64,000 bases of DNA from an uncultured delta proteobacterium (GCA_963804165.1 CAWDPO010000008.1:81894-145893), one strand, 5' to 3'. Shown: positions 38,801 to 63,732, counted from the first letter of the stretch. Notes: a model not told the origin generated them from the letters alone. Numbers and translations: made by a program.

Positions 38801-39002
38801 CCTCACGACAACCCGGACGGACAGATAAAGGTCAAAGCCATGGCGCTTCTCAACTCTTAGAAATTCGGGGAAGGTGTTAGCGACAATCGCCGTAATCAAT
38901 TGTCTCAAGAGAAAAGCGTCAACAAAATACCAAACTCAAAGATTTGACACTACTTGCTATCAGTAGATGCTCCTGGACCGGAGCGTTTCACTATTGACTG
39001 GC

Positions 39003-39020
39003 GTTCGCAATAATGCGAAC
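39003..39020. promoter_or_regulatory. Palindromic operator of the TA pair
   Basis: GTTCGCA-ATAA-TGCGAAC directly after TTGACT and upstream of the toxin ATG. Confidence 0.7.
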
Positions 39021-39036
39021 ATAACTTTCTGAGACT

Positions 39037-39402
39037 ATGCCAAAGACAACCGTTGTCTTTTACCAAGATGACCCGGACACGGTCCCGGTGCTCGATTGGT
39101 TAGATTCGCTGCCTATGAAAGCTCTGGACAAATGTCGGGTTCGAATCGAACGGTTGCGTGATTTGGGTCATGAACTTCGACGCCCAGAGGCCGACTTCTT
39201 ACGAGATGGGATTTATGAACTACGGGTTCGACTCAGAACCACGAATTATCGAATGCTATACTTCTTCCATGGTCGGATTGCAGCGGTACTGGCGCACGGT
39301 CTGGTAAAAGAAAGTGAAGTACCTCAACACGATATTGAGCTAGCGATCCGAAGAAAATTGAATTTTGAACTCGACCCGGATCGATACACGTACAAGGAGT
39401 AG
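39037..39402 (+). CDS. Type II toxin, RelE/HigB (Gp49-like)
   Basis: PV.DWL..L, LRRP.AD.LRDGIYELR, YRMLYFF, HGLVK. Confidence 0.88.
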   Translation: MPKTTVVFYQDDPDTVPVLDWLDSLPMKALDKCRVRIERLRDLGHELRRPEADFLRDGIYELRVRLRTTNYRMLYFFHGRIAAVLAHGLVKESEVPQHDIELAIRRKLNFELDPDRYTYKE

Positions 39403-39407
39403 AAATC

Positions 39408-39740
39408 ATGGCAAAAACAAAGAGGAAAGCGACAGCGGATGCCGTTGAAATTCTCCACCGTCGCTATTATGCAGGCAAGCCGCGCCGACTCGCGGCTTTG
39501 GAGCAAGCACGATCGAACGACCACGTCGCTCGAAAGCTAACCGCACTGAGAATTGCGAACCGGCTAAGCCAACGTCAATTGGCACAACTCATCGGAACCA
39601 CAGCGTCAGTCATTTGTCGTCTCGAAGACGCCAGCTACGAGGGTCATTCCCTGGCGATGCTCAACCGAATCGCCGCGGCGCTAAATCAGCGCGTCGAGAT
39701 TCGTTTTGTGCCGGCAGAACGACGCTTGCGCTCCGCATGA
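39408..39740 (+). CDS. XRE-family HTH antitoxin (HigA-like)
   Basis: LSQRQLAQLIGTTASVICRLE...SLAMLNRIAAAL; directly downstream of the toxin. Confidence 0.88.
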   Translation: MAKTKRKATADAVEILHRRYYAGKPRRLAALEQARSNDHVARKLTALRIANRLSQRQLAQLIGTTASVICRLEDASYEGHSLAMLNRIAAALNQRVEIRFVPAERRLRSA

Positions 39741-39792
39741 TTCCAACCGACTGGACAGGCGCCAATATTTAAAGGAACCAGATCGACTCGGC

Positions 39793-40551
39793 ATGGCGCA
39801 AAAATTTTACGTGGTATGGTCAGGACGGCAGACCGGCGTATTTACGGATTGGGCGACCGCTCAGCGGGCCGTAACCGGATACGCCGGCGCGCGCTTCAAG
39901 GCCTTCCCGACCCGCTCGGAAGCGGAGGAGGCGTTTGCTCGTGGCGGCGCCGGAAGCATTTCGGCCAAAACTCCGAGCGCGCTAAAAACACGGGCAGCCG
40001 ACAGCGAACGCGCCGCGAGGCATACCGCTCATCAGTTCGATGTCAGCATTTATTGCGACGGCGCCTGTGAACCCAACCCCGGCAATGCCGGCTCTGGCAT
40101 CGTGGTGTATCGAGCCGGTAAACTTGCGGAATTGTGGTACGGCCTGTACCACCCCAGGGGAACCAACAACACCGCCGAACTGAACGCGCTCTATCACGCC
40201 TTGCGCATGGCCGAAGCGGAAATCAAAACCGGCAACACCGTCGAGGTGTGCAGCGACTCGGCGTACGCGATCAACTGCATTCGCAGCTGGGCGCCGAGCT
40301 GGGAAAAGAAAGGCTGGAAAAAACCCGGCGGCGAGATCAAGAACCTGGAAATCATCCAGGACTGCTACGCGATCTACCGACGTATTAAAAAAGAATTGAC
40401 CCTCACCCACGTCGCCGCCCACGTCGGCACCGAAGGCAACGAGCTCGCCGACCGCATGGCCATGCTCGCCGTGCAGCGTAAAGAAAAAAAACTGTGTCTG
40501 TATCTGGAAACGATGGACATTCCGACCCTGCTCAAGATGCGTGCGGGGTGA
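39793..40551 (+). CDS. Ribonuclease HI with N-terminal viroplasmin/hybrid-binding domain
   Basis: KFYVVWSGRQTGVF..W (hybrid-binding domain), YCDGAC..NPG, TNNTAEL, SDS.Y, HV.AH.G..GNELAD. Confidence 0.92.
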   Translation: MAQKFYVVWSGRQTGVFTDWATAQRAVTGYAGARFKAFPTRSEAEEAFARGGAGSISAKTPSALKTRAADSERAARHTAHQFDVSIYCDGACEPNPGNAGSGIVVYRAGKLAELWYGLYHPRGTNNTAELNALYHALRMAEAEIKTGNTVEVCSDSAYAINCIRSWAPSWEKKGWKKPGGEIKNLEIIQDCYAIYRRIKKELTLTHVAAHVGTEGNELADRMAMLAVQRKEKKLCLYLETMDIPTLLKMRAG

Positions 40552-40571
40552 GCGCCTCAAAACCCACCGAT

Positions 40572-40712
40572 CGAACGACTTGAACAGTTTGAACGAACGG
40601 AACCGCTGGACTCAAACGGCTTGAACGGAGCGAATCCTTCGACAAGCTGGATGAGCGAAGTTCGAGCTGCTCATGGTGAGCTCTGGTCGAACCATTTGAA
40701 CGATTTGAACGC
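40572..40712 (+). repeat. TTGAACG-periodic intergenic repeat with REP-like insert
   Basis: ~9-bp spaced (t)tgaac units; 40669..40710 matches 48342..48383 (42 bp, 1 mismatch). Confidence 0.8.
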
Positions 40713-40750
40713 TCGATGTCGTCTGTGCGATCCGCCCACGCCTACAATTT

Positions 40751-41851
40751 CTACTTCAACGAAGCCATATCGATGACAAAGCGGTATTTCACATCACTTT
40801 TGAGGAGACGCTCGTAGGCTTCGTTGATCTGCTCAACCCGGATCACTTCCACGTCCGAGGTGATATTGTGCTCGGCACAGAAGTCGAGCATCTCCTGGGT
40901 CTCGCGGGTGCCACCAATGCTGGAGCCAGCGATCTGCCGCCGCTTCGGCAGCAGGCCAAAGATTTCGATCGGCAGCGGTTTTTCCGGCGCACCGACCATG
41001 GTCAGTGTGCCGTCGCGCTTCAACAACTCGAGATAGGCGTTTAAATCGTGCTCCGCCGAAACCGTATCCAAGATAAAGTCAAAGCTCAGCCCATGTTTCT
41101 TCATCTCCGCGGCATTTTTTGACACCACGACTTCGTGCGCGCCAAGCCGCCGCCCGTCTTCGATCTTGTTCGGCGAAGTCGTGAAGAGCACGACTTCCGC
41201 GCCGAAAGCGTTTGCGAACTTCACTCCCATGTGACCCAACCCGCCGAGTCCCACGATGCCGACCTTCTGGCCTTTGCCGACCTTCCAGTGGCGTAGCGGC
41301 GAGTATGTCGTGATACCGGCGCACAGCAGCGGCGCCGTCCCGGCGAGATCCAATTTCTCCGAAGCCCGCAAGACAAACGCTTCATCGACCACGACGCTCT
41401 CGGAATACCCTCCATAAGTTACACCGCCCAGGTGTTTGTCTTCCCCATTGTAGGTGAGCGTGGGAAAGCTATCGCAATACTGCTCTTCACCGGCGCGGCA
41501 TGAGGCGCACGCGCGGCAGGAGTCCACCATGCAGCCGACCGCGGCGAGGTCGCCGGCTTTCAACTTCGTTACTGCACTCCCGGTTTTAACGACCCGGCCG
41601 ACAATCTCGTGGCCCGGGACGCACGGATAAGTTGTCGGCATCGCTTTCTGCCACTCGTTGCGCACCTGGTGCAAATCCGAATGACACACCCCGCAGTACA
41701 AAATGTCGATCTGCACATCCTGCGGTCCGGGGATGCGGCGCCGAATTGTCAATGGCGCCAGACCTGACGTGGGACTTTGAGCCGCAAAAGCTTTTGCCGT
41801 TTGGGAAACGCCTTTTTCCTGCTGCGCGCTTTGTGGAGTCGCTCCGCTCAT
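40751..41851 (-). CDS. Zn-dependent NAD(P) alcohol dehydrogenase (CAD family)
   Basis: CGVCHSD, GHEIVG, structural Zn C..C..C.......C, APLLCAGITTYSPL, GLGGLGH, YRFVID. Confidence 0.95.
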   Translation of the reverse strand: MSGATPQSAQQEKGVSQTAKAFAAQSPTSGLAPLTIRRRIPGPQDVQIDILYCGVCHSDLHQVRNEWQKAMPTTYPCVPGHEIVGRVVKTGSAVTKLKAGDLAAVGCMVDSCRACASCRAGEEQYCDSFPTLTYNGEDKHLGGVTYGGYSESVVVDEAFVLRASEKLDLAGTAPLLCAGITTYSPLRHWKVGKGQKVGIVGLGGLGHMGVKFANAFGAEVVLFTTSPNKIEDGRRLGAHEVVVSKNAAEMKKHGLSFDFILDTVSAEHDLNAYLELLKRDGTLTMVGAPEKPLPIEIFGLLPKRRQIAGSSIGGTRETQEMLDFCAEHNITSDVEVIRVEQINEAYERLLKSDVKYRFVIDMASLK

Positions 41852-42078
41852 ATCGGTATCCCTCCTAATACTTGATTATTGGATTCGAAAGTCGCAAGAG
41901 AAGTGCCGGACGGTGTCGATATCCACAATATTATATCGTTAGATTCAGATAGCTAGAGACTTCTGTTATTTGATCCGGCCTGGAATAGCGAAGATTGATG
42001 ACAGAATGTCGACGGCTGCCGAAATGTCCCCGCGCGCTTGTTGGGTACTCATGATCATCTCAGATGGAAGCCGACCTT

Positions 42079-42130
42079 TCGATGTGTGCAGCGACTCGGC
42101 CTACTCCATCACTGCAGTTCGCAGTTGGGC
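42079..42130 (+). pseudogene. Short internal RNase H gene remnant
   Basis: tcgatgtgtgcagcgactcggcctactccatca-ctgcagttcgcagttgggc aligns with 40241..40292 tcgaggtgtgcagcgactcggcgtacgcgatcaactgcattcgcagctgggc. Confidence 0.75.
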
Positions 42131-42202
42131 ATGGCGATCAATCTAGACTTTAATCGATTCATAACGTAGTAAATTTCATGCGCGAAGAAGGAGAATAGGC
42201 TC

Positions 42203-43033
42203 ATGCGTTGGGAAGTCGCGGCACGCAGCATCGCTTCGATAGTCGAATCTCCGCAATTCCGCCACACCGTAACGGCCCTGATCTTGGTCAATGCGATCGT
42301 CGTCGGCCTGGACACTTACCCCGAGGTCAGAGCCGTTTATGGGGATGTCCTTCAAACCGCTGACCGTATTGTTCTGTACCTGTTCACAGCGGAGCTGGCG
42401 CTGCGCTTTCTTGGAGCCAGTCCACCGCCGGCGTTTTTTCGCAGCGGCTGGAACATCTTCGATCTTGTTATCGTCGCGCTCGGCTTTCTGCCCGCATCGG
42501 AATTTTTCACGGTCGCGCGCCTGTTCCGCATCATCCGCGTGCTGCGGGCCATCAGCGTCATCCCTGATCTGCAAAAAGTCGTCGCCGCCTTGCTGCCTAG
42601 CCTGCCGTCGTTGGGTCACATCGCAGCCTTGCTTGGGCTTCTGATCTATGTTTACGGCGCCATCGGCACGTCGTTGTTCGGGGCCTTTGCACCTCGATAC
42701 TTCGGCACCCTGCATCAAAGCGTGCTCACACTATTTGGCGTGATTACCCTTGAGGGCTGGGTGACCGTGATGGACGAAGTGCTGCCGCACATGCCCGCGG
42801 CGTGGATCTATTTTGTGACGTTTATTCTGCTCGGCACTTTCGTCGCTCTCAATTTTTTTGTCGGCGTCATCGTCAACAACCTTCAGTCGGTGGCGACCGA
42901 CGAGGTCAATGACTTAGCTGAGATCCGTAAAGCCCTGGCGCGCCTGGAAGCCCACCTGCAGACCGAGCCAAGCGATGAAAAACTTAACGATCGCCGCGTC
43001 GTGAATGTCCGGACGATAGAAAGCGCCTCTTGA
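42203..43033 (+). CDS. Bacterial voltage-gated sodium channel (BacNav/NaChBac-like ion transporter)
   Basis: 6 TM; S3 WNIFD, S4 RLFRIIRVLR, pore filter TLEGW, S6 FVALNFFVGVIVN, C-terminal coiled coil. Confidence 0.9.
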   Translation: MRWEVAARSIASIVESPQFRHTVTALILVNAIVVGLDTYPEVRAVYGDVLQTADRIVLYLFTAELALRFLGASPPPAFFRSGWNIFDLVIVALGFLPASEFFTVARLFRIIRVLRAISVIPDLQKVVAALLPSLPSLGHIAALLGLLIYVYGAIGTSLFGAFAPRYFGTLHQSVLTLFGVITLEGWVTVMDEVLPHMPAAWIYFVTFILLGTFVALNFFVGVIVNNLQSVATDEVNDLAEIRKALARLEAHLQTEPSDEKLNDRRVVNVRTIESAS

Positions 43034-43141
43034 GGTGTGCGGTCCGACTCGCACAACAGGTCGAGCTTCTTGACGAGCGCCGCTGCGTAGCGTAACTTCA
43101 GTTGACCAGAATTTTGGTCGAGTCGTCGAAGGACCGCTAGC

Positions 43142-43435
43142 ATGTCCAAAACGATCCCTATCTCAGAGGTGAAAACACGATTGCCAGAGCTCGTCTCCGG
43201 TGTCGAGGAGCGTGACGATGAGATCGTCGTCACGCGCAACGGGAAACCTGCTGCCGTGCTGGTGAATTACACCGAATACGAGCGATTGAAAGAGACGTTG
43301 GATGTCTTGAGCGATCCCGCATCGATGAGGCAGATCGCTCAGAGTAAACGTTTCTACGCCAAAGGTCGGCAAGGAGACTCCTTCGAAACCGTCTTTGGCG
43401 AATCTCTCGTTGCGCGTAAACGTCGGAAGAAATAA
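43142..43435 (+). CDS. Phd/YefM antitoxin
   Basis: ISEVKTRLPELV, VTRNGKPAAVLV...YE.L.ETL. Confidence 0.92.
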   Translation: MSKTIPISEVKTRLPELVSGVEERDDEIVVTRNGKPAAVLVNYTEYERLKETLDVLSDPASMRQIAQSKRFYAKGRQGDSFETVFGESLVARKRRKK

Positions 43436-43731
43436 TGGCCGGCTATCGGCCCGAGATTCCTCCTCATGTGGCTGAGGTCGTACGCCACTTAACTCCGGAA
43501 TTAAAGCGCGGCATCAAGGAAGCGCTTCGATCTTTAAGCGCCGATCCCTTCGTCGGTGCGCCGCTCATCGGAGAATTGACCGGCCTGTGGCGGATCAAAG
43601 TCAGGCGGTTTCGCATTGTTTACGAACTCGATCGCAAAGCCCGCGTGCTAAGGATTTTCGCCATCGGCCACCAGCGAGAAGTTTACGAAGAAGTAGCCGA
43701 CCGACTGCGCCAGGGAAGAGAACGTAGGTAG
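43435..43731 (+). CDS. RelE/ParE toxin
   Basis: G.PL.GELTGLWRIKV.RFRIVY...IGHQREVY; TAATG overlap with the antitoxin. Confidence 0.9.
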   Translation: MAGYRPEIPPHVAEVVRHLTPELKRGIKEALRSLSADPFVGAPLIGELTGLWRIKVRRFRIVYELDRKARVLRIFAIGHQREVYEEVADRLRQGRERR

Positions 43732-43909
43732 GCTTGCTGTTTTTGCCAAAGGGTAGAGCTTTCGGCTCATCAAGCATCCCTCATACTCCACACCCTTGCA
43801 CCTTGACCCCCGGCTGCGTTATTTCATCTAGTATGGCTGTGAGCGGTTTTTTTAGAAATCCGCGCGACAGCAGCTCGCGCAATTTTCACAATACAAAGGA
43901 GCCGAAACG

Positions 43910-44989
43910 ATGGCCATTATTGAACGAACCTATGGTAAAGAGACCAACGCCGTTATCAATGAAATGTTGATTTCATCGGATTCTCACGTCATCGAGCCCG
44001 CGGGTCTTTGGCAGAAACAACTGCCGAAGGCTTTTCAGGACCGCGCTCCCGATTTTGGCGGACAAAGGCCCAACGACACACCCGGCGGCGCCCAGGACAA
44101 GAACAAGCGCGTTTCCGAGATGGCCGCCGACGGCGTCAGCGCCGAGGTGCTCTATCCGACCCATGGCTTGAAGTGCTTGAGCCTCGACGATCACGAGTTG
44201 GAGGCGGCTTGCTGCCGAGTTTACAACGATTGGCTCATCGACTACTGCAGCGCCGCGCCCGACCGGCTGATCGGCATTTCGATGTTATCGATGCACGACA
44301 TCGACGGCGCCGTGAAAGAGCTGGAGCGCTGCCGCAAGGCTGGCATGCGTGGCTCGGTGATCTGGCAGGTGCCGCCGCCGGAATTACCTTTTTCCTCATC
44401 GCACTATGACAAGTTCTGGGCCGCCTCTCAGGATCTCGAGATGCCGGTCAACTTGCACATCTTGAGCGGGCACGGCTACAGCCGTAGCCGTTCGGTCGGT
44501 CTCGGAGATACGCCAACCGGCATGACTGCGGAGCACAATAGCGTCAACATGAAACTCTTTCAGTCGGTCGATAGCCTCTACGAACTGATCTATTCCGGCG
44601 TGCTCGAGCGTTTCCCCAAGCTCAAAGTTGTCCTCGTCGAGAACGAGCTCGGCTGGATTCCGTTTGTATTGGAGCAGTGGGATTACTACTTCAAACGCCA
44701 CGGCGCCAAGCGCGAGGGCCTGGCGATCAAAAAACTCCCCAGCGAATACTTCCATAACCAGATCTACACCACTTTCTTCAACGACGCCGTCGGCGGTCAT
44801 ATCCTGTCGTGGTGGGGCACCGACAACTGCATGTGGTCCAACGACTTCCCGCACGGCAACTCGACCTGGCCCAATTCTCGTCACGTTGTCGCTCGCGATC
44901 TAGGCGACCTCCCCGCCCCGCTGCGCGCCAAACTGGTGCGGGAAAACGTCGCTAGACTTTACAACATTCCGATTCCCAGTTCGGTCTGA
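43910..44989 (+). CDS. Amidohydrolase family protein
   Basis: ISSDSHVIEP, YNDWL, LHI, ERFPKLKVVLVE, MWSNDFPH. Confidence 0.9.
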   Translation: MAIIERTYGKETNAVINEMLISSDSHVIEPAGLWQKQLPKAFQDRAPDFGGQRPNDTPGGAQDKNKRVSEMAADGVSAEVLYPTHGLKCLSLDDHELEAACCRVYNDWLIDYCSAAPDRLIGISMLSMHDIDGAVKELERCRKAGMRGSVIWQVPPPELPFSSSHYDKFWAASQDLEMPVNLHILSGHGYSRSRSVGLGDTPTGMTAEHNSVNMKLFQSVDSLYELIYSGVLERFPKLKVVLVENELGWIPFVLEQWDYYFKRHGAKREGLAIKKLPSEYFHNQIYTTFFNDAVGGHILSWWGTDNCMWSNDFPHGNSTWPNSRHVVARDLGDLPAPLRAKLVRENVARLYNIPIPSSV

Positions 44990-45017
44990 GATCAAGCAGC
45001 TCTCCATCAACGTCTGT

Positions 45018-45103
45018 GGAATTGATTTCAATGATTGGAACCCGCTGAACTCATAAACGGCTTGAACGGAGAAAGCGGTTGAACGGTTGGAACGACTTGA
45101 ACG
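45018..45103 (+). repeat. TTGAACG-periodic intergenic repeat
   Basis: aaacggcttgaacggagaaagcggttgaacggttggaacgacttgaacg. Confidence 0.75.
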
Positions 45104-45121
45104 TTCTCCTCTGATTCCCCC

Positions 45122-45923
45122 ATGCGTCTAGGAGGAAAAACCGCCGTTGTCATCGGCGCCGGTCAGGGCCCGGGCGAAGGTCTGGGCAACGGGCGCGCCA
45201 CGGTGCTGCGATTTACCCAGGAAGGCGCCAAGGTTATGGCTGTCGATCGTGAGCTCCGATCCGCCGAGGAGACCGCGTCGATGGTCAAGCAGAGCGGCGG
45301 CGATTGCATCGCCTTCGAGGCCGACGTCACTCAAGGAATCGACCCTTGCCGCCGCCATGGCGGCGGCGCAGCAGCGCTGGGGCCACATCGACATTCTGCA
45401 TTACAACGTCGGCGTCAGCATCGCCGGCGGCGATGCGCCGCTGCTCGAGTTCACCGAAGAGGCTTTCGACCGTATCAGCGCGATCAACCTGCGCGGCGCC
45501 ATCATGGCTTGCAAGCACGTCATGCCAATCATGCGACGGCAGCGTGCCGGCGCCATCACCATGATCTCTTCGCTTGCCGCACTGGAAAACTATCCCTTCG
45601 TCGCCTACAAGGCGACCAAAGCGGCGCTGATCGCGTTTACCAAGCAAGTCGCCATCCAGAACGCCGAGTTTGGTATTCGCGCTAACGTGATCCTGCCCGG
45701 CCTGATCGACACGCCGATGGCGGTCGACACGCGCGCCCGCGTGAGCGGCAAGAGCCGCGCCGAGGTCGCGACGGAGCGCGATGCCCGCGTACCGCTACGG
45801 CGCAAAATGGGTACGGCTTGGGACGTGGCCAATGCGGCGCTGTTCCTCGCCTCCGATGAAGCCAACTTTATCACCGGAGTGGCACTTCTCGTCGACGGTG
45901 GCGGCGCCCTCAACATCGGGTGA
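45122..45923 (+). CDS. SDR family oxidoreductase (frameshift near 45335)
   Basis: GAGQG..G.GNG, YKATK, IRANVILPG.IDT, FLASDEA.FITG. Confidence 0.9.
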
Positions 45924-45955
45924 GTATATCGCGACCAACTCTCGGACTGCGGTTC

Positions 45956-46032
45956 GTTCAAGGTTCAATGTTCCAGGTTCAAGGAGGAATTCCGATCTGT
46001 CGACTTTGAACGTTGAACCTTGAACTTTGAAC
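45956..46032. repeat. Hairpin of 7-bp units (GTTCAAG)n...(TTGAAC)n
   Basis: gttcaaggttcaatgttccaggttcaagg ... ctttgaacgttgaaccttgaactttgaac; homolog of 15638..15713. Confidence 0.85.
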
Positions 46033-46060
46033 GCTTTTATTCACTGACACGGAGGCGATT

Positions 46061-47047
46061 ATGAAAGCAATGCCTTGCAGAGTTATTGCTCTTGGCTTTG
46101 TCCTGATTCTTCTTCCCGGCGTGGCTCAGGCGCAAAAGCTCGTGGTCGGCTATTCCGGCATCACCGCGATACAGGCCCCCTTCTGGATCATCAAGGACGC
46201 CGGCTACTTCAAGCAGGAGGGATTGGACGCGAGTCTCGTTTATATCGCCGCCTCATCGACCATGGCGCAGGCGATGATGGCAGGCGAAGTCGCGATCTCT
46301 ACCGCGAACAGTCAAGCGATCGTCGACACCGGCCTTCAGGGCGGCGATCTCGTGGCGGTCGGCGCGATTGTCAATTTCGTCGCGCTGTACGTGATCGCCG
46401 CGCCAGAGATCAAGACTGTTCAAGACTTGAGAGGCAAGCCCGTGGGAGTTACGCGCTTTGGCGCGACTACGGATTTCGCGATGCAGATGTTTCTGAAAAA
46501 ATATGGTCTGGAGCCGGTGCGCGACGTGCCGATCATCCAGATCGGTGGATTGCCGGAGTTGGCCGCGGGCTTGTCGAATAAATCCATTTACGCCGCGGCC
46601 ATGTCCTATCCCATGGGCTTGGTGGCGCAACAGGCTGGGATGAAGATGCTGGCCAATCTAGCCAAGGAGGGGATCCCCTTTGTGCATCAAGGCCTGACGA
46701 CAACGGGTAAATTCCTGCGCGAACGCAGATCTCAGGCAAAGGCATTCGTTCGCGCTTACGGCAAGGCCGTTCATTTCATGCATACCCGCAAAGAGGAGTC
46801 GAAGGCGATCGTTTCCCGTTACACCAAGGTCACGGATCCGGCAATGCTCGAGGGCACGATGCAATACGCCTACGATTTCGTTGAGAAGATCCCTCTGGTC
46901 AAGCGCGAGGCCTTTCAGGTAACCGCGGATGAGATCGGCAAGAAAAATCCCAAGGCCAAGCAAGCAAAGCTGGAGCAGTTCTATGACAACAGCTTGGTGC
47001 AGGAGTTGATCAACGAGGGCTTTTTCACCTCGCTATGGGGAAAATAA
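46061..47047 (+). CDS. NitT/TauT ABC substrate-binding protein
   Basis: Signal peptide; GYFKQEGLD, DLRGKPVGVTRFGATTDF, FYDNSLV. Confidence 0.88.
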   Translation: MKAMPCRVIALGFVLILLPGVAQAQKLVVGYSGITAIQAPFWIIKDAGYFKQEGLDASLVYIAASSTMAQAMMAGEVAISTANSQAIVDTGLQGGDLVAVGAIVNFVALYVIAAPEIKTVQDLRGKPVGVTRFGATTDFAMQMFLKKYGLEPVRDVPIIQIGGLPELAAGLSNKSIYAAAMSYPMGLVAQQAGMKMLANLAKEGIPFVHQGLTTTGKFLRERRSQAKAFVRAYGKAVHFMHTRKEESKAIVSRYTKVTDPAMLEGTMQYAYDFVEKIPLVKREAFQVTADEIGKKNPKAKQAKLEQFYDNSLVQELINEGFFTSLWGK

Positions 47048-47141
47048 GAGCTAAAAGCGGATTTGACCCGCTGTAGTGACTGGCCAAGCTCGTTTGACCT
47101 CGGAGTTGAATTCAAAAACATGTTCAGAGCAGGGAGGTGTT

Positions 47142-48206
47142 ATGAAAAAACAGACTCTCGCAGGCGAATATTTTCTCATGCTCCTCGTCGCTCTAAACGT
47201 TGCCTCGGTTTCCCTGGGCCACGCGCAAAGCGAGTCCTTCTATAAAGGAAAGACCCTCAAAGTCGTGGTCGGAACCACTGCAGGTTCTCTTTATGATATC
47301 TGGGCGCGCACGGTTGCCGCCCATTTGCCGAGGCACATCCCAGGCAATCCGGATGCGCTCACTCAGAACATGCCTGGAGCCGGCCACAAGATTGCCACCA
47401 ATTACATGTACAATGTGGCCAAGCCCGACGGCCTGACGATCATCGGATCCATCTTACCTGGAGTGTACATGGACCAGCTCGCGGGGCGGCCGGAGGTCAA
47501 ATATGACTGGGCAAAGTTTGTCTGGATTGGCTCACCGGTCAAGAGTGAATCCCAGATGACCATGCGCGCGGACGCGCCCTACAAATCCATCGACGACATA
47601 CGCAAGGCCAAAGAGCCGCCGCGCTGCGGCAGCACCGGCACTTCCGGCACAGACTTTATGCTGGCGCGGCTTCTCGAAGAAATCATGCCGCCCCTCAAGA
47701 TCCACTCCGTGCTGGGATATCCGGGCGGGCCGGAGCTCGATCTCGGCATTGAGCGAGGCGAGATACAGTGCCGGACCTTTACGATCGAAACGTTTTTCGC
47801 GCGCGAGCCTTATATTGCATGGAAAAAGAAAGGCTTCGTTCGCAACGTCTATCAAACAGGTTTGAAACGCGATCCGCGCTTGGCCGATGTGCCGACGCTG
47901 TACGAGGTGATGGACGGTTATAAGATACCCGAGGGGGGTCGGCGCCTGGCAAGCGTGATCCTCGCCAACGGAACTCTAGGCAGGCCGATATTCACTTCCC
48001 CCGGGACGCCACCGGATCGGGTGAAGATGCTGCGCGAAGCCTTTGGAAAGATGGTCAAGGACCCGGCTTTTCTGGAAGACGTCAAGAAAAAAAACTTCGA
48101 GCTCGACCCGATCAGCGGCGAAGAGTTGGAAGTCATCGTCAAAGAGGTCATGGCACAACCGCCGGAGACCATCGCCCGCTTAAAAACAATTCTGTTACAA
48201 CAATAA
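47142..48206 (+). CDS. Tripartite tricarboxylate transporter substrate-binding protein (Bug/TctC-like)
   Basis: FYKGKT, HIPGNP...NMPGAG, KPDGLT, GYPGG...ERGE, PGTP.DRV. Confidence 0.88.
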   Translation: MKKQTLAGEYFLMLLVALNVASVSLGHAQSESFYKGKTLKVVVGTTAGSLYDIWARTVAAHLPRHIPGNPDALTQNMPGAGHKIATNYMYNVAKPDGLTIIGSILPGVYMDQLAGRPEVKYDWAKFVWIGSPVKSESQMTMRADAPYKSIDDIRKAKEPPRCGSTGTSGTDFMLARLLEEIMPPLKIHSVLGYPGGPELDLGIERGEIQCRTFTIETFFAREPYIAWKKKGFVRNVYQTGLKRDPRLADVPTLYEVMDGYKIPEGGRRLASVILANGTLGRPIFTSPGTPPDRVKMLREAFGKMVKDPAFLEDVKKKNFELDPISGEELEVIVKEVMAQPPETIARLKTILLQQ

Positions 48207-48303
48207 AATGGAAAATGGGATGCGCGGAAAAGAGAGAGCCCCGACGGCGTTCTGCTATAAATTCCCCTGGTCTCTTGCCGAGTAGGTGTCGGGTTTTGGA
48301 CTC

Positions 48304-48384
48304 TTGGACGGCTTGAACCGAGCGAAGCGATAGAAATCCCAGCTCATGGTGAGCTCTGGTCGAACCATTTGAGCGATTTGAACT
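48304..48384 (+). repeat. TTGAAC-periodic intergenic repeat
   Basis: Shares gctcatggtgagctctggtcgaaccatttga with 40669..40710. Confidence 0.75.
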
Positions 48385-48513
48385 CGCGATTTCTTCTATA
48401 TGCATCAAAATTCCCATCCTAATGATTAATATATTGGCATTTTATGGATCACGCCGAGTCCATGGTCAGCTTTCGCCCGCTTGTGGATTTATAGATCAAA
48501 TATTGATACAATG

Positions 48514-54260: not shown

Positions 54261-54463
54261 CAGCCGACCGAATTTATGTGAGCCTCTTATGAGCTGCGCG
54301 CAGCAAGAAAGTCGGGACGTAAAAGTCTGACCCTCGCCGATGACCCAGCAGCTTGGGATTTCCGCGGCTGGCGGGCAAGACCGCGGACGATATGCGCGTG
54401 GATATCACCATCGCGAGGGCCGGAGAACGCGTGGTAATCGGTTTCAGGCTTGCCTAAATAACA

Positions 54464-55351
54464 TTATTTCGTCGTATATCTTTGCGCTTCACTGTCCGCC
54501 ATTGACTCCAATTCGCTAAGAACCTGCTCGATCAGTTGCGGTTCCATGCTGCTCATTTGTTCGGCGCTAATCGCCTGCGCCATCCCGGCGACCGTGGGTC
54601 GATCGAACAAAGCGTGTATGGGTAAATCGGCGTGAAATACCGCCCCGACGCGAGAAAGAATTCTTGCGGCTCCGAGCGAATGGCCGCCTAGATCAAAAAA
54701 ACTATCCTCAACTCCGACCCGATCGAATGCCAACACTTCGGCCCAGATGGCGGCGAGCTCGCGCTCGATCGGCGTTCGCGGCGCAGTGTACGGATTATCG
54801 AGCTCAGGGCGGATACTGCCGGGTTCCGGCAGTCGCAGACGATCGATTTTCCCGTTGGGCGTCAGCGGCAGCGCGTTGAGAATCACGAACGTAGAGGGGA
54901 TCATCGGGCTGGGCAGGCGAGCGGCGAGGGCCTGTCTCAGGGCGCCGCTCGTAGGCAACGTCTGCCCATCCGGCACGACATACGCAACGAGATACGCATC
55001 TCCGGCCTCGTCCTGCCGGTTGACTACGACGGCGTCCTTGACGCCGCCAGCCTCGCGCAACATCGCCTCGATCTCACCTACACCGACGTTGTAGCCTCTG
55101 ACTTTGACTTGGAAGTCTTTCCGGCCGTGATATTCCAGACAGCCGTCAGGTCGCATTAGGCCCAGATCTCCGGTGAGATAAATTCGAACTTCGGGATCGT
55201 CCGGGTCAGACAGAAACTTGGCCTCCGTAAGATCCGGCCTCCGCCAGTATCCCGGCGAAAGAAAACGACTCCTGACGGCGATCTCGCCAACTCTGTCTCT
55301 TCCGACCAATGCCCTTTGCTCGTCGAGCACTAGCACTTCCCGGTCGCGCAC
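54464..55351 (-). pseudogene. 5'-truncated NRPS module (adenylation C-terminal half plus PCP)
   Basis: YLTGDL, GRKDFQVKVRG, LPLTPNGKIDR, FFDLGGHSL; N-terminal A-domain motifs missing; the break abuts the repeat at 55363. Confidence 0.88.
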
Positions 55352-55362
55352 GCGCAGCCGTG

Positions 55363-55414
55363 TCAGACTTGCCTAACTCTACTAACTCGGGGCAAGTCAA
55401 AAGACTCCCGACCC
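55363..55414. repeat. Solo copy of the transposase terminal repeat forming a hairpin
   Basis: TCAGACTTGCCTAACTCTACTAACT (24/25 identical to 56746..56770) followed by cggGGCAAGTCaaaagactcccgaccc; GACTTGCC/GGCAAGTC stem. Confidence 0.85.
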
Positions 55415-55470
55415 GTTTTTCGCTCCGCGATTCACCAGGGCGGGCACTGCCCGATGCTGTGGCCTCCGCT

Positions 55471-56526
55471 CTACGGCTGCGGCAACGGATCCGCGCCGGA
55501 GAGCTTGTTGAACAAGTCCACCGTTTCTCGGTCGCGGGGCAGCTCGCGAATCGCTTTCTCGAGCTCCTCCGCCGGCAGCGGGTCGGGCTCCTCGCCGACC
55601 ATCTTTCTGAATTCCGCTTTGAACTCAGGATCGGCAAAAGTCTTGCGCATCGCGTCGCGCAGAATCTTGACCTTATCTGGTGCCGTTCCCGGAGGAAGAA
55701 GGAAAGGAGTTCCCGCGCTGACAAAGGCCCTTTGCATGGCAAGAAGCTTTCGCTCCTTTTCCGATTTCGTCAATCGTTCGATATCGGGCAGCTGAGCAAA
55801 GACGGGATGAGGGTGTCTTCGCCCTCTCGGAACCTCGTTGACGAGATGAAAGTCCACCAGCTTCTTCTCGATCCAGTCGGGCGCTTGTCGCACTAGCGTT
55901 GCCTGGATGGTCCATCGGGCGTCGAGCTCGCCTTGCATCATGGCCAGATTGACTTCGTCGCCTTGGGCAAATCCGGTAATGAACTTCGGCTCCTTCATGC
56001 CGAGCACATACGCGGAAATGCGGCCCATGTTGTAGAGGTTATGTCCGACCGACTGAGCGCCGATGCGCACGCCTGAGGAGCCGCGGAGCTTTTCGATGCT
56101 GTCGAGGCGCGCCTCCTTACGAGTCACAAAGATGTAGGGCTCGCCGCTGGTCGGAGATCCGAGGTAGTGGAGTTTGTCGATGTCGTAGAGAACTCCGCTC
56201 AAGCCGAGCACGGCCGCCGGCACGAAGCTCGACAGCATGACCCCCATGGTCAGCCCGTCCGGACGCGCCCTGTAGATATAGTTTCCGGCCTTGCGGGATC
56301 CGCCGCCCGGCATGTACTCGATGACGAAGGTCGGTCTTCCCGGTATATACTTGCGGAGAACGGCAGCGGTGGCTCTGAACCGCAGATCCACCGTGCCTCC
56401 CGGACCGCCTCCATAGACGACGTTGATGGTCTTGCCCTGATAGAACGGAGCTTGAGCGAATCCGTATCCGGGCATCACGAAGCCAGCCAGCAGCGCCAAG
56501 AAAATCAGAACAGCCAATTTTTTCAC
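55471..56526 (-). CDS. Tripartite tricarboxylate transporter substrate-binding protein
   Basis: GTG start with GGAGG RBS; FYQGKT, YIPG.P, MPGGG, PDGLT, PGT.PDKV. Confidence 0.85.
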   Translation of the reverse strand: MKKLAVLIFLALLAGFVMPGYGFAQAPFYQGKTINVVYGGGPGGTVDLRFRATAAVLRKYIPGRPTFVIEYMPGGGSRKAGNYIYRARPDGLTMGVMLSSFVPAAVLGLSGVLYDIDKLHYLGSPTSGEPYIFVTRKEARLDSIEKLRGSSGVRIGAQSVGHNLYNMGRISAYVLGMKEPKFITGFAQGDEVNLAMMQGELDARWTIQATLVRQAPDWIEKKLVDFHLVNEVPRGRRHPHPVFAQLPDIERLTKSEKERKLLAMQRAFVSAGTPFLLPPGTAPDKVKILRDAMRKTFADPEFKAEFRKMVGEEPDPLPAEELEKAIRELPRDRETVDLFNKLSGADPLPQP

Positions 56527-56745
56527 GGCAACCTCCTTCGCGGTTTCACGGAAGGACCGAGTGGATTCCCGAGCCATCGGCAACGGCTCCAACCGATGAA
56601 TGTCTGACGCTATTGTTAATGGACAGTTGTGAAGGTCTAATCATCGCACCCCCAATGTCAATATCGGGAATCTGGTCGGTCATTTCGATACACGCAGTGA
56701 CAGCTGGTAGGAAAGCTCGCCTACGCTCCAGTGTGCGCAATTGCG

Positions 56746-57657
56746 TCAGACTTGCCTAAATCTACTAACTTAATTCTTCTGCAGGGCACGGCTGACGTTG
56801 GATGGATGGCAATTAAGAAAATTCGCTACCTGAGAAGCAAGGTAGCCCTGCTCCAACACGGCTTCGCGGATGAATCGATCCCGGGCCTCTACGACGGTTG
56901 CCAGCCGGCCCTTGCGAAGCAATATCTCGGGCGAAAGTCCCGCCTTGTTGCCACACTCTTAAGTAGGTCCTTCAGCGACGCACGCCGGGAGACGGGCAAA
57001 TGGACTGTTTCTTTAGCGATCTTCTTAACGAAGCGCTCCGGTCCTAAAAATGGCGCCCCATCTCCGGGATGCCATTCTGCTCGATAATTCACTTTCGCTC
57101 CATCCCGGATAAACGCTTCATAACGAGCAGCTGTCCTCAACTCGCCCATCACTGGTCCCGAGTCGATCAGCCCGCGTTTTTCCTTTCCCAAGTATTCTCC
57201 GTGCCCGCTCCATTGCCATTCGTTGGGCCGCTTGACCATTGTAGCCCTGACCGGATTCAGATGAATGTAACGGACCAATTCCAATAAATAGCTATCCCGA
57301 TCGCATACGATGGCCTTGTAGCGCCCCTCAAACAAATGCCCCCGCCGGTGGTGGATCTTGTTAAAGCGTCGGACGTACCCGGTCAGCAGCGATTGCAGAA
57401 TCCTGGCCGTCGGGAAGCGATGGACCTCCAACAACAAATGAAAGTGGTTCGACATCAAGACATAGGCGTAGAGAGAGAACGGGTAGCGTTGACGCACGGT
57501 CCGAAGCGCTTCGATGAAGCCCTGATAGTCGCTTTGGCTGAGAAAAATCTTCTGCCCATCATTGCCGCGGGCTAACACGTGATAAAGCAATCCTTCGGCA
57601 TGAACTCGGGCGTGACGCGGCATCGCTATCATGAGTTAGTAGATTTAGGAAGTCTGA
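56746..57657 (-). mobile_element. Compact ~912-bp element: HUH/Y1 transposase gene bounded by 24-25 bp inverted repeats
   Basis: Left TCAGACTTGCCTAAATCTACTAACT (56746-56770); right AGTTAGTAGATTTAGGAAGTCTGA (57634-57657). Confidence 0.85.
56770..57632 (-). CDS. RAYT-like (IS200/Y1 HUH) tyrosine transposase with C-terminal HTH (frameshift near 56946)
   Basis: MPR.AR..YHV.ARGN, YVLMSNHFHLL (HUH), GHLFEGRYKA, RYIHLNPVRA (catalytic Y), WSGH; corrected C-terminus ...EARDRFIREAVLEQGYLASQVANFLNCHPSNVSRALQKN*. Confidence 0.92.
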
Positions 57658-57761
57658 TCACCACTAGCTGCCTAGGTTTCTTCAATGCACCGGCTAGGCG
57701 CGAGCATCGAGAAACAAGCAGAGCTAAAGCATAGCGCTTGATATACGGGTTGGCTTGGCTA

Positions 57762-59104: not shown

Positions 59105-59212
59105 CCAGCCCAGCTTCATAGAACCAAATCGCCCCGGCGCGGAAACTGCCGGACGGCGACGCCTGGAGCTACGAGGCCAAGCTTGACGGGTATCGCTGCC
59201 TCGCCGTTATTC
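59105..59212 (+). pseudogene. N-terminal remnant of an ATP-dependent DNA ligase (LigD ligase-domain-like)
   Basis: PSFIEP then KLPDGDAWSYEAKLDGYRCLAVI (ligase motif I, E-x-K-x-D-G-x-R); breaks off at gatttgacgccc. Confidence 0.8.
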
Positions 59213-59541
59213 GATTTGACGCCCACGATGGACGGGCAATCGATCGATAAACTCAAAGTTCGAATACTATGCTTAAAGTCAGACAGCATATGCTTAGAGT
59301 CCAGACATCACAATCTTTACAATCTTCTCGAATCCACGCTGGGGAAGCCCGAAGTGTCAAGGCTTGCATAGATGAATGACACTCTAGGATCATCAAGCAC
59401 TCGAGTCTCACAGGGTCGGGCATGAGTTATTTCAACTAAGATTCATCCACTCTTCTTCCACCACACCAGATTTTTTTGGGCCATTCTGTGGTCATTTCCG
59501 CGTTGATCTGGCATAGCTGTCAAGATCGCGCTGCTTTCGAC

Positions 59542-59795
59542 ATGCCGCTCTCCCGCAATATAGTTCTCCTCCTCTGCGCCGGCGTCGTGACGATGACATC
59601 CATCGGCATGAATTCGTTCAGCCTGTTTTTGCGACCCATCGAGGCGGAATTCGGCTGGTCGCGAACAACCGCCACGGTGCCGTACATGTTCGGCATGCTC
59701 GGCTGGGCGGTAGGCGGCGTCTTCTTCGGCAAACTGGCCGACGACTTGGGCGCCCGCAAGGTCATTCTCACAGGGATTCTGCTCATGGCGGCGGG
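59542..59795 (+). pseudogene. N-terminal fragment of an MFS transporter
   Basis: FSLFLRPIEAEFGWSR...GKLADDLGARKV (MFS motif A), then unrelated sequence. Confidence 0.8.
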
Positions 59796-59977
59796 GTGGA
59801 GAGCGGTGTCTGGGTGGAGACGCGGTGTCTGGCTTTCATATTGCCTTATGGTAGTTGTGACGCCTGGCTTGGACTAAGTCCCGTTCCTTCACGCCAAAAG
59901 CAGCGGAAGTCAGGTGCAGTAACTCTGAAAATCTTGCTCTTGGCCCGACACCTCGCTAGGTTCTCTATGTTCTCACT

Positions 59978-60115
59978 CGAAGTCAAAAGGTCGAGACTCG
60001 ACATGGAACCTATCAGCGGCCAGGAAATCGAAACGATCTACAAAGAATTGATGCACCAGCCCCCGGCCGTCGTGGACTTGGTCAAAAAGCTCGACGAGAA
60101 TTAACAGCCGACCGA
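59978..60115 (+). repeat. 138-bp copy of the 3' end of the TTT binding-protein gene (54134..54271)
   Basis: 3 mismatches by eye; includes the stop codon and 11 bp downstream. Confidence 0.95.
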
Positions 60116-60372
60116 GAGCGCTCGTGGAATTTCCTTGAGTGCCTTATTCTTCGCCGAGTGCCTCTTGATGAACTCGTCACTGCCCAAAGTCAATCCGGAC
60201 CTTTGAGGTCACCCACGCTCGCTTCGCTATCCCGTCTCTGACAAACCCGGGCTGTGCAAAGGTAAAAGATTTGACCCTGACATTTCCTGACATTTCTTAC
60301 TGACATTTCTTATTTGCGTAGAAGCGGGCGGCCGTTGGCAGCGGGAGCGCCATCGTCAATGAAGAATCGGAA

Positions 60373-61266: not shown

Positions 61267-61374
61267 CTTTGCATACCTCTTTTGCAAGTTTTGCGAATTG
61301 TGCACTGAAATACCAGACCTAGAATTCAACTTAGATTGAAAGTTAGCTTTCAACGTCTCCAGGGGAGGGGCGCC

Positions 61375-61425
61375 ATGATCGATCTTTACACTTACGCGAC
61401 GCCTGACGGTTGCAAGGCCTCGAGA
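61375..61425 (+). pseudogene. N-terminal stub of a glutathione S-transferase (YfcG-like), divergent from LysR
   Basis: GGAGG RBS; MIDLYTYATPDGCKAS resembles the MIDLY..TPNG.K start of this GST class. Confidence 0.55.
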
Positions 61426-61476
61426 CGGGACTACCGTACGCCGTGCATGTCGATCTCAATCAAAAAGGAGGAGAAA

Positions 61477-62133
61477 ATGATGGATACAGAAATTGTTCGA
61501 TTGCATAGGGAAGGCAAACGCGCAGAGTCGCTTGACAGGTTCGCTGAAAAGTATCAGGCGCGGCTTCTCGCGCTTGCTCGTCGCGTAATAGGAAACCATG
61601 AGGACGCACTGGACACTCTCCAGGAAATTTTGATTCAGGTTGATCAATCATTGCCGAGATTCAAGGGCAAGTCTTCGCTTTACACCTGGGCGTTTCGTCT
61701 CGCTACCAACGTCTGCTTAAATTACGAAACGAGACTCGGCCGGACGAACAGCCACGCGCCGCTCGACGAAGGGTCAAGCGATGCCATCTTGCTGCCGGTT
61801 GCCCGACCCGATGACAACCCTGACACGAGCTGCCGGTCCCGCTTCAGGCAGCACCTGGTGGAGCAAGCGTTGCTGAAATTGCCGGAAACGCAGCGCGCGG
61901 TGTTGGTATTATGCGACTTGGAGGACATGACTGCGTTAGAGATCGCAAAGATCTTGCAACTCAGCGTGAATGTCGTCAAATCGCGCTTGCACCGCGCGCG
62001 GGCAACGCTCAAAAGAATGGTGGAAAAAGAGTTCGAGGCTTTAGGAGTCGAGGTGGATGGCGTTCACACTTTCGAGTGTACTTGGCAGTACCTTACTGCG
62101 AGCGCAAAAGACGCAGCGCCTGCATCGATATAG
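61477..62133 (+). CDS. ECF sigma-70 family RNA polymerase sigma factor
   Basis: AGGAGG RBS; DA.D.LQE, F.G.SSLYTW.FR.A.N.CLN, LP..QR.VLVL, EIA.IL...VKSRLHRAR. Confidence 0.9.
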   Translation: MMDTEIVRLHREGKRAESLDRFAEKYQARLLALARRVIGNHEDALDTLQEILIQVDQSLPRFKGKSSLYTWAFRLATNVCLNYETRLGRTNSHAPLDEGSSDAILLPVARPDDNPDTSCRSRFRQHLVEQALLKLPETQRAVLVLCDLEDMTALEIAKILQLSVNVVKSRLHRARATLKRMVEKEFEALGVEVDGVHTFECTWQYLTASAKDAAPASI

Positions 62134-62230
62134 GGTTTCTATTGCTCGGGCTCATTGCATGACGGAAATCGCCTTTATGAAGTGACAGCCGGCCCAAGCG
62201 CTATGTTGGGCCGGGCTGCCGCTCGGGTTC

Positions 62231-62890
62231 TTACTTTCGCCAACGGGCTGCCGCGTGTTGTTGGAGTTGCGTCCCGGTGTAGTAAAGCGCGGGAACCAGG
62301 TCGCCGAACAATTGCCCGCTGACTTCGTCGGTCGGTTGGAGATGGTTGTATTGCAGTTCTGTGAGAATGTTGGCGGTGTTCATAACGACCACGCCAGCGT
62401 GAACCAGACGCAGAATTGCAATTTGCTGGTCGAGCGGACTCCACGTGCCGGACGCGTCGATAACTCCGTAGACATCATAGCCGGCTTGCAATGCCGAGAG
62501 CGCCGGAAACATCAAGCAGATGTCTGTCGTGCATCCGGCGATGACCAGCTTGCGGCGACCCGTAGCTGCAATCGCCTTGACGAACGCCGGGTCGTCCCAA
62601 GCATTAATCGGACCCGTACGATGAATGATCGGCGCGTCGGGCAGTATTTCCACAAGTTCCGGCAGAATCGGTCCAGCGAAGCCTTCAGGCATATTATCGC
62701 TAAGAACCGTCGGCAGGTTGTGCAGCTTGGCGATCTTCGCCAGTGCGACAACGTTGTTGCGGAAACGCACCGGATCGATGTCACCGACGCCCGTCATGAT
62801 GGCGGCTTGATGATCGATGAACAGCATCACGGCGTTGTCGGGCGTAATAAACTCCCTGTGCGGATTGCGGTTGTTGGTTGAATCGTTCAT
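62231..62890 (-). CDS. Isochorismatase-family (YcaC-like) cysteine hydrolase
   Basis: LFIDHQ, R.G.INAWD, TGRRKLVIAG..TDIC..FPAL, DASGT. Confidence 0.9.
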   Translation of the reverse strand: MNDSTNNRNPHREFITPDNAVMLFIDHQAAIMTGVGDIDPVRFRNNVVALAKIAKLHNLPTVLSDNMPEGFAGPILPELVEILPDAPIIHRTGPINAWDDPAFVKAIAATGRRKLVIAGCTTDICLMFPALSALQAGYDVYGVIDASGTWSPLDQQIAILRLVHAGVVVMNTANILTELQYNHLQPTDEVSGQLFGDLVPALYYTGTQLQQHAAARWRK

Positions 62891-62986
62891 AGAACACTCC
62901 TTTCCTTTTTCTGAATTTTTTGGTCTTGCGGTTTCTGCTCTCTAACCCTTAGTCACATGCAGCCGCGAAAAAGATACGCCCGGAGA

Positions 62987-63262
62987 GGTGAGATGGATAA
63001 TTTTCTGAAGCACTTCAAAAAGGCCATCATGGTGCTGCACGAAAAGATCGGTGTACCCATCGTCGGCACCTGGGTGAATCGGCCACAGAACGAATTTATT
63101 TGGGCCAGGACCTACAAAGATAAGGCGGAGCTCGAAGCGAAGACCAAAGAGTTCCAAGCCACGGTCGCGGCCACCGGAGTCAAACTTGGAGCCAACGTTG
63201 CGAAGATGGAAGTGCGCGAGGCCGAATCGGCGCTTGCGTAGAAGCGGATTCGACGGCGGTCA
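62987..63262 (+). pseudogene. 5'-truncated near-identical copy of the NIPSNAP gene (52879..53154)
   Basis: 276 bp with ~11 mismatches by eye; first 12 codons missing. Confidence 0.92.
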
Positions 63263-63732
63263 GCGGTAACGGCAAACAGTCTCAGCCTAAAGAGGTTTAA
63301 AGATCTGAGTCAGTAAGCTCGGTCGTTGAGTCATCGAAGCAAAGGCGAGCAAGATGTGTCAACGCCAAGATGTGTCAACGCAATGTGACCCTCTGGCTGA
63401 CCCAATGTCCGCTCATTGATGCTTATCGTTCTTGGGCCTAGGAATGATCCCTTTATCGAACAGGTACGCCTCTACGTCTGATCGCAGAGTAACACCCCCA
63501 CCCCCCACTGTCTGCCCGAGCACAACCGCTACGACTTGAAGTGCGTTCTCATACGCCCGTCTGGCGTCTCTATCTACCTCTGTGTGAGGTTGCGACAGGA
63601 AATGAAGGTATTTGCGACGTACCTGGCGAGCAGCAGCGTTGTTACAAAAGGATCACGCAGTTGAATCCGGCGCGGTGGGCGTTAAGGTACGAAATGAGCC
63701 CAGGTAGTGTTTTTACTTGAACGGAGTGGATT

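Follow-up and report, generated by a model that had tools for sequence, protein, structure and literature searches.

The closest described relatives of the DNA considered here are the TIRtrons, a name given by Di Nocera et al. (2013; PMC3733652), who called the enzymes of these units TIRYTs. According to the text of that paper, some of the terminal inverted repeats (TIRs) share the motif GGGGWSAS, and there are TIR families of moderate abundance whose members stand singly, in pairs or in clusters. In the text of Quentin et al. (2018; PMC6006769), most TIRYTs fall into TnpAY1 subclass 2.1, the second largest Y1/HUH group, which is found in 14.9% of the surveyed strains with a mean of 1.9 copies per genome (Table 1 of that paper). 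The subclass is characterized there by the motifs NH[VYF]H and Y[IV]HLNP, by a C-terminal helix-turn-helix (HTH; Bac_DnaA_C, HTH_23 or HTH_28) and by the absence of repetitive extragenic palindromes (REPs). The text of Bertels et al. (2017; PMC5581495) treats the same enzymes as group 1 of the REP-associated tyrosine transposases (RAYTs), the RAYT group that most resembles insertion sequences (IS). We analyzed a stretch of 64,000 nucleotides from an uncultured delta proteobacterium (contig C8:81894-145893 of an assembly of 7.5 Mb in 46 contigs), hereafter the window. An earlier note on this DNA had proposed that a same-strand motif ending in TGACCC recurs at gene junctions between 38 and 64 kb and marks an integrase-free cassette array driven by an HUH transposase. 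The reading that we favor, and hold to be quite likely, is that the motif is the outer tip of the TIRs of TIRtrons and that the region is a scrapyard of repeated TIR-associated events rather than an ordered cassette array.

The window encodes a TIRYT with many paralogs

The enzyme in question is encoded by the following gene.

56776-57632, minus strand: TIRYT (RAYT-like Y1/HUH transposase) gene, with an open reading frame (ORF) at 56889-57632 of 247 aa

The product matches the Pfam family Y1_Tnp (PF01797) with an E value of 3.8e-10, and the best NCBIfam model, REP_Tyr_transpos, gives 78.8 bits for a cut-off of 80. Both the NHFH and the YIHLNP motifs are present in its translation, and a three-frame translation places the HTH-like C-terminal part in another frame, extending down to about 56776. 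Searching the genome by tblastn with the window protein yielded 18 matching stretches, the same number as obtained with a profile built from nine paralogs, and the matches belong to several lineages. The paralog proteins measure 274-323 aa and carry an HTH tail. In the alignment of nine of them, Y1_Tnp is recognized in 9/9, Bac_DnaA_C in 6/9, HTH_23 in 3/9 and HTH_28 in 2/9, and the residues N59, H60, H62, Y119, N123 and P124 are invariant. Outside this genome, 14 of 18 same-genus genomes contain at least one match (0-30 each), and an unpublished genome (G005) is used here as a source only for its 16 TIRYT matches and for an orthologue discussed below. The closest transposase homologues named in public records come from Binatia and from further uncultured lineages of soil and groundwater.

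The motif is the outer tip of terminal inverted repeats

On either side of the paralog genes stand inverted repeats of about 20-35 nt. Their inner parts vary by lineage, and their outer tips read CTGACC(C) outward. At seven other paralogs, both tips fit one strict pattern. Genome-wide, many copies of this pattern share 15-25 additional upstream bases, and several adjoin the start or stop of Y1_Tnp homologues. Read as its complement, CTGACCCC becomes GGGGTCAG, in agreement with GGGGWSAS. Most paralog tips fit this published motif too, as do tips from other phyla, where the gene is flanked by a tip-bearing inverted pair at 46 of 80 loci collected from relatives; the window TIRtron and most solo TIRs of the window have shortened or variant tips, and the window copies end mostly in three C's or in GACAC or GACGC. 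In total, the genome holds some 50-70 TIRs, of which about half are solo, and the largest family has 13 copies. Between 47 and 60 kb of the window we identified one TIRtron and eight solo TIRs, which belong to at least six families, occupy both strands and lie amid toxin-antitoxin (TA) modules, single genes and gene fragments. The copies and the degenerate tip are as follows, "site" referring to the position listed by the earlier note.

56743-56772, minus strand: left TIR of the window TIRtron; tip at 56743, toward lower coordinates; pairs with 57633-57660; 8-copy family
57633-57660, plus strand: right TIR of the window TIRtron; contains GGAAGTCTGA; inverted repeat of 56743-56772
47048-47069, plus strand: solo TIR (site 47059), directly after the stop codon of an NMT1-like gene; 13-copy family
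51422-51447, plus strand: solo TIR (site 51433); matches of 18/19 on C17 and C26 and of 15/15 beside the TIRYT gene of C34
51868-51918, plus strand: degenerate tip (site 51881), then a 14-nt tandem duplication, then the RNase H tail at 51919-52009
52679-52704, plus strand: solo TIR (site 52690), upstream of a NIPSNAP-like gene; 17/17 with C2:250982-250998
54308-54333, plus strand: solo TIR (site 54319), with weaker support (BLAST 14/14 only), 73 nt past the stop of a TctC-family gene
55360-55388, minus strand: solo TIR from the same family as those of the window TIRtron; the tip (55360) adjoins a truncated non-ribosomal peptide synthetase (NRPS) fragment
59354-59385, minus strand: solo TIR, 107 nt from the end of a DNA-ligase fragment (59122-59247)
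59790-59850, minus strand: solo TIR (59825-59850) with a junction-spanning tandem duplication (59790-59824); adjoins a major facilitator superfamily (MFS) fragment
60252-60312, plus strand: solo TIR (site 60262); 21/21 with C34:146734-146754; followed by three tandem units starting with TGAC

Several of these solo copies are linked to transposase genes located elsewhere. The TIR at 47048-47069 is identical over 21/21 positions to copies on C17 and C27 and over 20/21 to both ends of the C30 TIRtron, and the family of 54308-54333 has seven copies, including TIRtron ends on C1 and C34. The likeness that the earlier note had seen between the motif and the right repeat of the transposase is thus confirmed, that repeat being the one that holds GGAAGTCTGA, and the assignment of the motif to the end repeats of an HUH Y1 transposase is borne out by the inverted repeats flanking both the window gene and its paralogs. 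A search of the literature with the letters of the motif returned unrelated primer matches only.

As a side observation, the solo TIR at 55360-55388 lies 1.4 kb beyond the left end of the window TIRtron, in the same orientation, with a TctC-like gene enclosed. The stretch 55360-57660 may be a composite unit with cargo.

All twelve strings on which the proposal of an array was built are present where the earlier note had placed them (12/12). When each site was compared by BLAST, together with its 30 upstream bases, with the whole genome and was further subjected to family clustering, about five were found to be genuine repeat copies: sites 47059, 51433, 52690 and 60262 belong to repeat families present elsewhere in the genome, and site 54319 shows weaker family membership. 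At site 55399 the genuine repeat is the minus-strand copy immediately to the left of the listed string (55360-55388). The other six sites received no such support.

TIR tips are concentrated in 38-64 kb and occupy both strands

The pattern AYYYGACCC occurs six times on the plus strand and never on the minus strand in 38-64 kb, for 0.68 expected per strand, and 0/0 times in 1-29 kb; however, this enrichment test is circular because the pattern was fitted post hoc to the listed sites. An independent count was made with the family sites as seeds, each tip needing support from a seed on another contig or at a distance of more than 30 kb. The genome then contains 52 supported tips, five of which fall in 38-64 kb for 0.18 expected (Poisson 1.4e-6); none falls in 1-38 kb (0.26 expected). 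The window cluster, with four tips in 4.5 kb, is the densest of the genome after one on C11. The idea of a hotspot holds. Measured from the nearest TIRYT match, 16 of the 52 tips are no more than 300 nt away, a further 8 no more than 10 kb, and the other 28 more than 10 kb. A loose all-versus-all clustering of TGA[CT][CAG]C sites was swamped by coding paralogs and was kept only for the families that have window sites.

The strand bias did not survive. When window seeds are allowed, ten tips are counted in the window, a number biased upward because window sites themselves served as seeds (the unbiased number being five), and they divide into six plus-strand and four minus-strand copies (binomial p 0.75), the latter at 55360-55388, 56743-56772, 59354-59385 and 59825-59850.

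Short duplications span the tip junctions

Directly outside many tips, we observed short tandem duplications with a period of 10-27 nt, their units starting in the final bases of the TIR and extending into the flank. We refer to them as stutters. In this genome, 12/36 family tips carry a duplication with a score of 10 or more, compared with 2/61 singleton matches to the pattern and 7/2000 random positions (Fisher 6e-18). The same holds in other phyla, where 20/92 TIR ends of the cross-taxon loci are duplicated versus 1/267 controls (Fisher 5e-12); 16 of these loci have at least one duplicated end and four have both. In this cross-taxon set, the most frequent starting point of the duplicated run is the T of TGACCC, with 8/20 at offset -6 or -5. 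The window itself contains three stutters, at 51894-51918, 59790-59824 and 60278-60312.

Neither stutters nor tips adjoining truncated genes are mentioned in the text of PMC3733652 and PMC6006769, figures and supplements aside, and "tandem" in the text of PMC3733652 concerns REPs or CRISPR. Much of the value of these data for follow-up work lies in the stutter at the tips. Further stutters were noticed on genome contigs C1, C6, C17, C34 and C46 and at loci L033-L100, and some loci show long runs of reiterated tip on both sides.

Tips adjoin truncated genes and synteny breaks

Several tips adjoin truncated genes, as the earlier note had suggested, or synteny breakpoints. The truncated 5' end of the NRPS fragment (54464-55351, minus strand), of which only the AMP-binding C-terminal and carrier domains are left, lies 9 nt from the tip at 55360. 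The MFS fragment (ORF 59476-59877), which retains the first 113 residues of the gene and matches MFS_1 over residues 32-113, ends at the stutter of the tip at 59825, and the RNase H tail begins 26 nt past the degenerate tip at 51893.

Comparison with same-genus relatives shows that they share gene-sized blocks only, at 80-93% identity. G018 retains an SDR-NMT1-TctC block that includes the TIR at 47048-47069. In G012, homology ends at 47047, one base before this TIR, and in G003 and G004 homology begins at 47125. The following module has different neighbors in different genomes.

51461-51905, plus strand: 445-bp module between two plus-strand tips, 92% identical to a stretch of G012 that has other neighbors

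On contig C314 of G012, the order is the end of RNase H, an amidohydrolase gene, the copy of the module and an amidohydrolase tail. In the window, the module, which is single-copy in this genome, starts 14 nt after the tip at 51447 and is followed by the RNase H tail. A second module, that of the NIPSNAP-like gene, has homology in G009 and G015 that begins 14-16 nt after the tip at 52704; at the position of this tip, G009 has a different TIR-like insert and G015 has none. Finally, downstream of the orthologue of 55471-56592 in G014, we found a TIR-like sequence of another family.

The coding content of these two modules deserves a separate remark. The 445-bp module contains an ORF of 45 aa (51549-51686) that is strongly hydrophobic and has a good ribosome-binding site, and a paralog in G012 ends exactly at its stop codon; a minus-strand ORF of 94 aa over the same positions is probably spurious. 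The NIPSNAP-like gene (52843-53133, 96 aa) is present in several copies per genome, and its DNA is 78-94% identical across genera and families of the order, far above its surroundings.

Public sequencing runs were consulted as Logan contigs (shares of 0.17 or less), which are unable to show circles or rare junctions. In a soil metagenome, a joint from 51292 to 51447, at a tip, was present in two contigs, with a shorter side of 23 nt for a caution line of 30. Two candidates were set aside: a contig joint on opposite strands (55361/57677) is explained by the likeness of the two inverted TIR copies, and a TctC-like paralog on C3, considered as flank evidence, shares the coding part only and is therefore uninformative on flanks.

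The window also contains three pairs of direct repeats, each consisting of a copy in an intact gene and a fragment 5.8-11.5 kb downstream, the third pair being nested in the second.

40461-40551 and 51919-52009: RNase H tail, 80% identical
52879-53154 and 62987-63262: NIPSNAP, 95% identical
54134-54271 and 59978-60115: TctC tail, 98% identical

These pairs have the look of insertions into genes in which the gene end was replaced, or of paralog remnants.

A proposed mechanism and the points that weigh against it

In the mechanism that we propose, the TIR would be bound by a TIRYT enzyme, which would nick DNA in single-stranded form at the TGACCC tip or beside it. Stutters, adjacent deletions that leave truncated genes, and new joints could then arise from repeated cycles of nicking, misaligned resynthesis and rejoining, and the mosaic of the region would be the sum of such TIR events and ordinary decay. 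For subclass 2.1, the stutters, the truncated genes and the module that changes neighbors point to a short, defined sequence at which DNA is broken and joined.

A number of observations weigh against this reading. Because the text of PMC6006769 and PMC3733652 reports no enzymatic activity, function, substrate or cleavage site for subclass 2.1, cleavage at the tip is a step that we infer. The tips of the window TIRtron itself lack the GGGG run, and strict GGGGWSAS is not enriched in 38-64 kb (2 and 0 per orientation, for 1.4 expected each); the motif is not obligatory for TIRs since PMC3733652 states in its text that "some" TIRs share it. The frame of the window TIRYT is broken near the 3' end of the gene, which may reflect either decay or an assembly error, the latter because other genes of the window are also split. 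Sites 38938, 50635, 50655, 51881, 59212 and 63381 gave no family match by BLAST against the genome (best E 0.17 or worse); one of them, 59212, is located inside the DNA-ligase fragment, and the alignment with paralogs continues across it, and 51881, though without a family match, marks the end of the module conserved in the relative. The upward bias of the ten-tip count belongs here as well. As to breakpoints, those of the two most recent duplications (D2 and D6; 54134-54271 = 59978-60115 and 52879-53154 = 62987-63262) are not at tips, the loose ends of metagenome contigs lie mostly at gene ends (52843, 53133, 54278) rather than at tips, and the G005 orthologue has no TIR downstream.

Alternative explanations

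In an integrase-free, integron-like array, the Y1 transposase would cut and rejoin single strands at the tips, and in this way excise and insert the modules located between tips of the same strand. The plus-strand tips at 47069, 51447, 52704 and 54333 do follow one another in series, each closing a co-oriented gene block. The module at 51461-51905 lies between two plus-strand tips here and in another context in G012, with GACGC 7-13 nt before it in both genomes, and the NIPSNAP module follows a tip by 14-16 nt here and has a different TIR-like insert in G009. The Y1 enzymes of IS200/IS605 cut both ends of their element on one strand, which also speaks for such an array. However, tip-to-tip mobility is seen for one module only (n=1), many gene junctions have no tip, the tips occupy both strands, and the region does not form a regular array, half of the listed sites being unsupported. 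Moreover, at orthologous genes of relatives the repeat is either a different one or absent, so that these repeats, unlike attC sites, are not carried along with the genes. The contigs showed neither a circular nor a tip-to-tip junction, circles and rare junctions being beyond what contigs, as opposed to reads, can display. Taken together, we consider an array of this kind unlikely.

A related idea, the most novel one considered here, is that the tips are live Y1 recombination sites, that the stutters may record the place where a TIRYT nicks and rejoins single-stranded DNA, and that any stretch between two same-strand tips could be lifted and pasted beside another tip, since tips of different TIR families share the TGACCC site. 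The 445-bp module appears to have moved tip-to-tip between this genome and G012. We put this idea forward tentatively and regard it as doubtful. If true, it would mean that TnpAY1 proteins of subclass 2.1 drive a cassette-like shuffling of genes based on HUH chemistry.

Alternatively, the region could be a nest of islands inserted in the 3' parts of genes by another recombination system, lost or located outside the window, with the TIRs as passengers in dispensable DNA. The nested direct repeats (RNase H, NIPSNAP, TctC), each with one copy in an intact gene and the other in a fragment farther downstream, agree with this, as does the arrangement in G012, where the amidohydrolase gene comes directly after RNase H, so that 40555-43794 and 44984-51460 are extra here. 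On the other hand, the direct repeats could equally be remnants of paralogs, and several fragment ends coincide with tips. In addition, 50 ORFs of 34.5-64 kb (E up to 1e-3) and 30 ORFs of 1-34.5 kb (E up to 1e-5) were scanned for protein families, and no integrase, DDE transposase or resolvase was recognized among these 80 ORFs, in agreement with the absence of an integrase announced by the earlier note. A nest of islands is, in our opinion, decidedly improbable.

Lastly, the motif could be a chance resemblance or part of a promoter, with TTGACC as the -35 box and an A-rich element upstream. In favor of this are the six of the 12 sites that have no family support, the collection of the motif by eye and the background level of strict GGGGWSAS. 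Against it, the family-based count is 5 for 0.18 expected, supported sites share identical matches of 17-21 nt with copies at TIRYT genes, and a promoter and terminator scan gave 6 promoter-like sites, compared with 9.3 +/- 2.9 in shuffled sequences, with none at the 12 sites. We hold this to be highly improbable as a general explanation; it is largely refuted for the supported sites and stands for the six unsupported ones.

Other features of the window

The gene content of 1-34 kb is ordinary (ClpB, a KaiC-like ATPase, a DinB-type polymerase, heme synthesis genes and CoA-transferases). TA pairs are frequent in 38-64 kb, in line with the TA-rich cargo that had been described: HigB/HigA-like, Phd/ParE and Phd/VapC pairs were found, together with a Fic gene and solute-binding proteins. 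The fragments of this part include the RNase H tail, the TctC tail and a 5'-truncated NIPSNAP-like gene. The DNA-ligase fragment at 59122-59247, which is 42 aa long, was recognized only by tblastn to paralogs; a Pfam comparison with E up to 1 gave nothing useful for it or for the unknown small ORFs. Rfam at the gathering threshold and a tRNA scan, both applied to the whole window, returned no matches.

Five genes are split into two overlapping or adjacent frames, which suggests assembly indel errors or widespread pseudogenes.

13027-14407: MFS
18983-20414: amine oxidase (HemY-like)
25526-26895: MmgE/PrpD
45122-45923: SDR
56776-57632: TIRYT

A 40-nt inverted pair (35830-35869 and 38744-38783) brackets an amidohydrolase gene and a SelO gene; its arms are part of a longer repeat (about 100 nt), of which the genome has at least 30 copies and which bears no relation to those of the TIRYTs. 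Tandem runs of 8-mers (TTGAAC-type and CCAATACT-type) occupy intergenic positions downstream of genes, some of them able to form hairpins, and such runs recur in the intergenic DNA of relatives.

15638-15706: tandem 8-mer run
27054-27094: tandem 8-mer run
33301-33341: tandem 8-mer run
40616-40724: tandem 8-mer run
45057-45110: tandem 8-mer run
45956-46025: tandem 8-mer run
48308-48397: tandem 8-mer run

Comparison with known systems

Like an integron cassette array, the region strings together short, unrelated genes, mostly in one orientation and with many TA pairs, and a sequence recurs at some of the junctions. It differs by the lack of an IntI-type integrase among the 80 ORFs, by the nature of the recurring sequence, which is a transposon end of 20-30 nt on either strand rather than an attC site, and by the many junctions from which this sequence is missing.

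The IS200/IS605 elements have in common with the TIRYTs the HUH Y1 catalytic fold (PF01797), and they are a likely model of cutting that is strand-specific and adjacent to a short conserved sequence. In the text of PMC6006769, these elements have no TIRs, carry subterminal hairpins and encode a transposase of about 150 aa with a Y---Q motif; here, in contrast, the proteins measure 274-323 aa, the motif is Y---NP, and TIRs are present.

REPtrons and REPIN-RAYT systems (TnpAREP 2.2 and 2.5) resemble the present case by a related Y1 transposase and by flanking repeats that are dispersed in intergenic DNA. No hairpin with a GT[AG]G foot was found here, and the families have at most 13 copies, not hundreds. 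Further differences are the 18 transposase matches, as opposed to a single-copy RAYT, the score of 78.8 bits, under the cut-off of 80, and a protein length of about 290-320 aa with an HTH tail.

The correspondence with the TIRtron/TIRYT system is the closest. It extends to the Y1/HUH core, to the NH[VYF]H and Y[IV]HLNP motifs, to the types of HTH and to a gene bracketed by TIRs without hairpin REPs, as well as to a fit of the tips to GGGGWSAS at most paralogs, to moderately abundant TIRs that are single, paired or clustered, and to the presence of several paralogs with different TIRs in one genome. It differs in three respects: the tips of the window copy are without the GGGG run, the genome has 18 matches (and its genus 0-30 per genome) compared with the mean of 1.9 given in the text of PMC6006769, and the stutters and the tips beside truncated genes go unmentioned in the text of both papers, figures and supplements aside. 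Because the system has already been published as TIRtron/TIRYT, it is not a new analogue of integrons; it is a known kind of mobile DNA, unusually numerous in this genome and genus.

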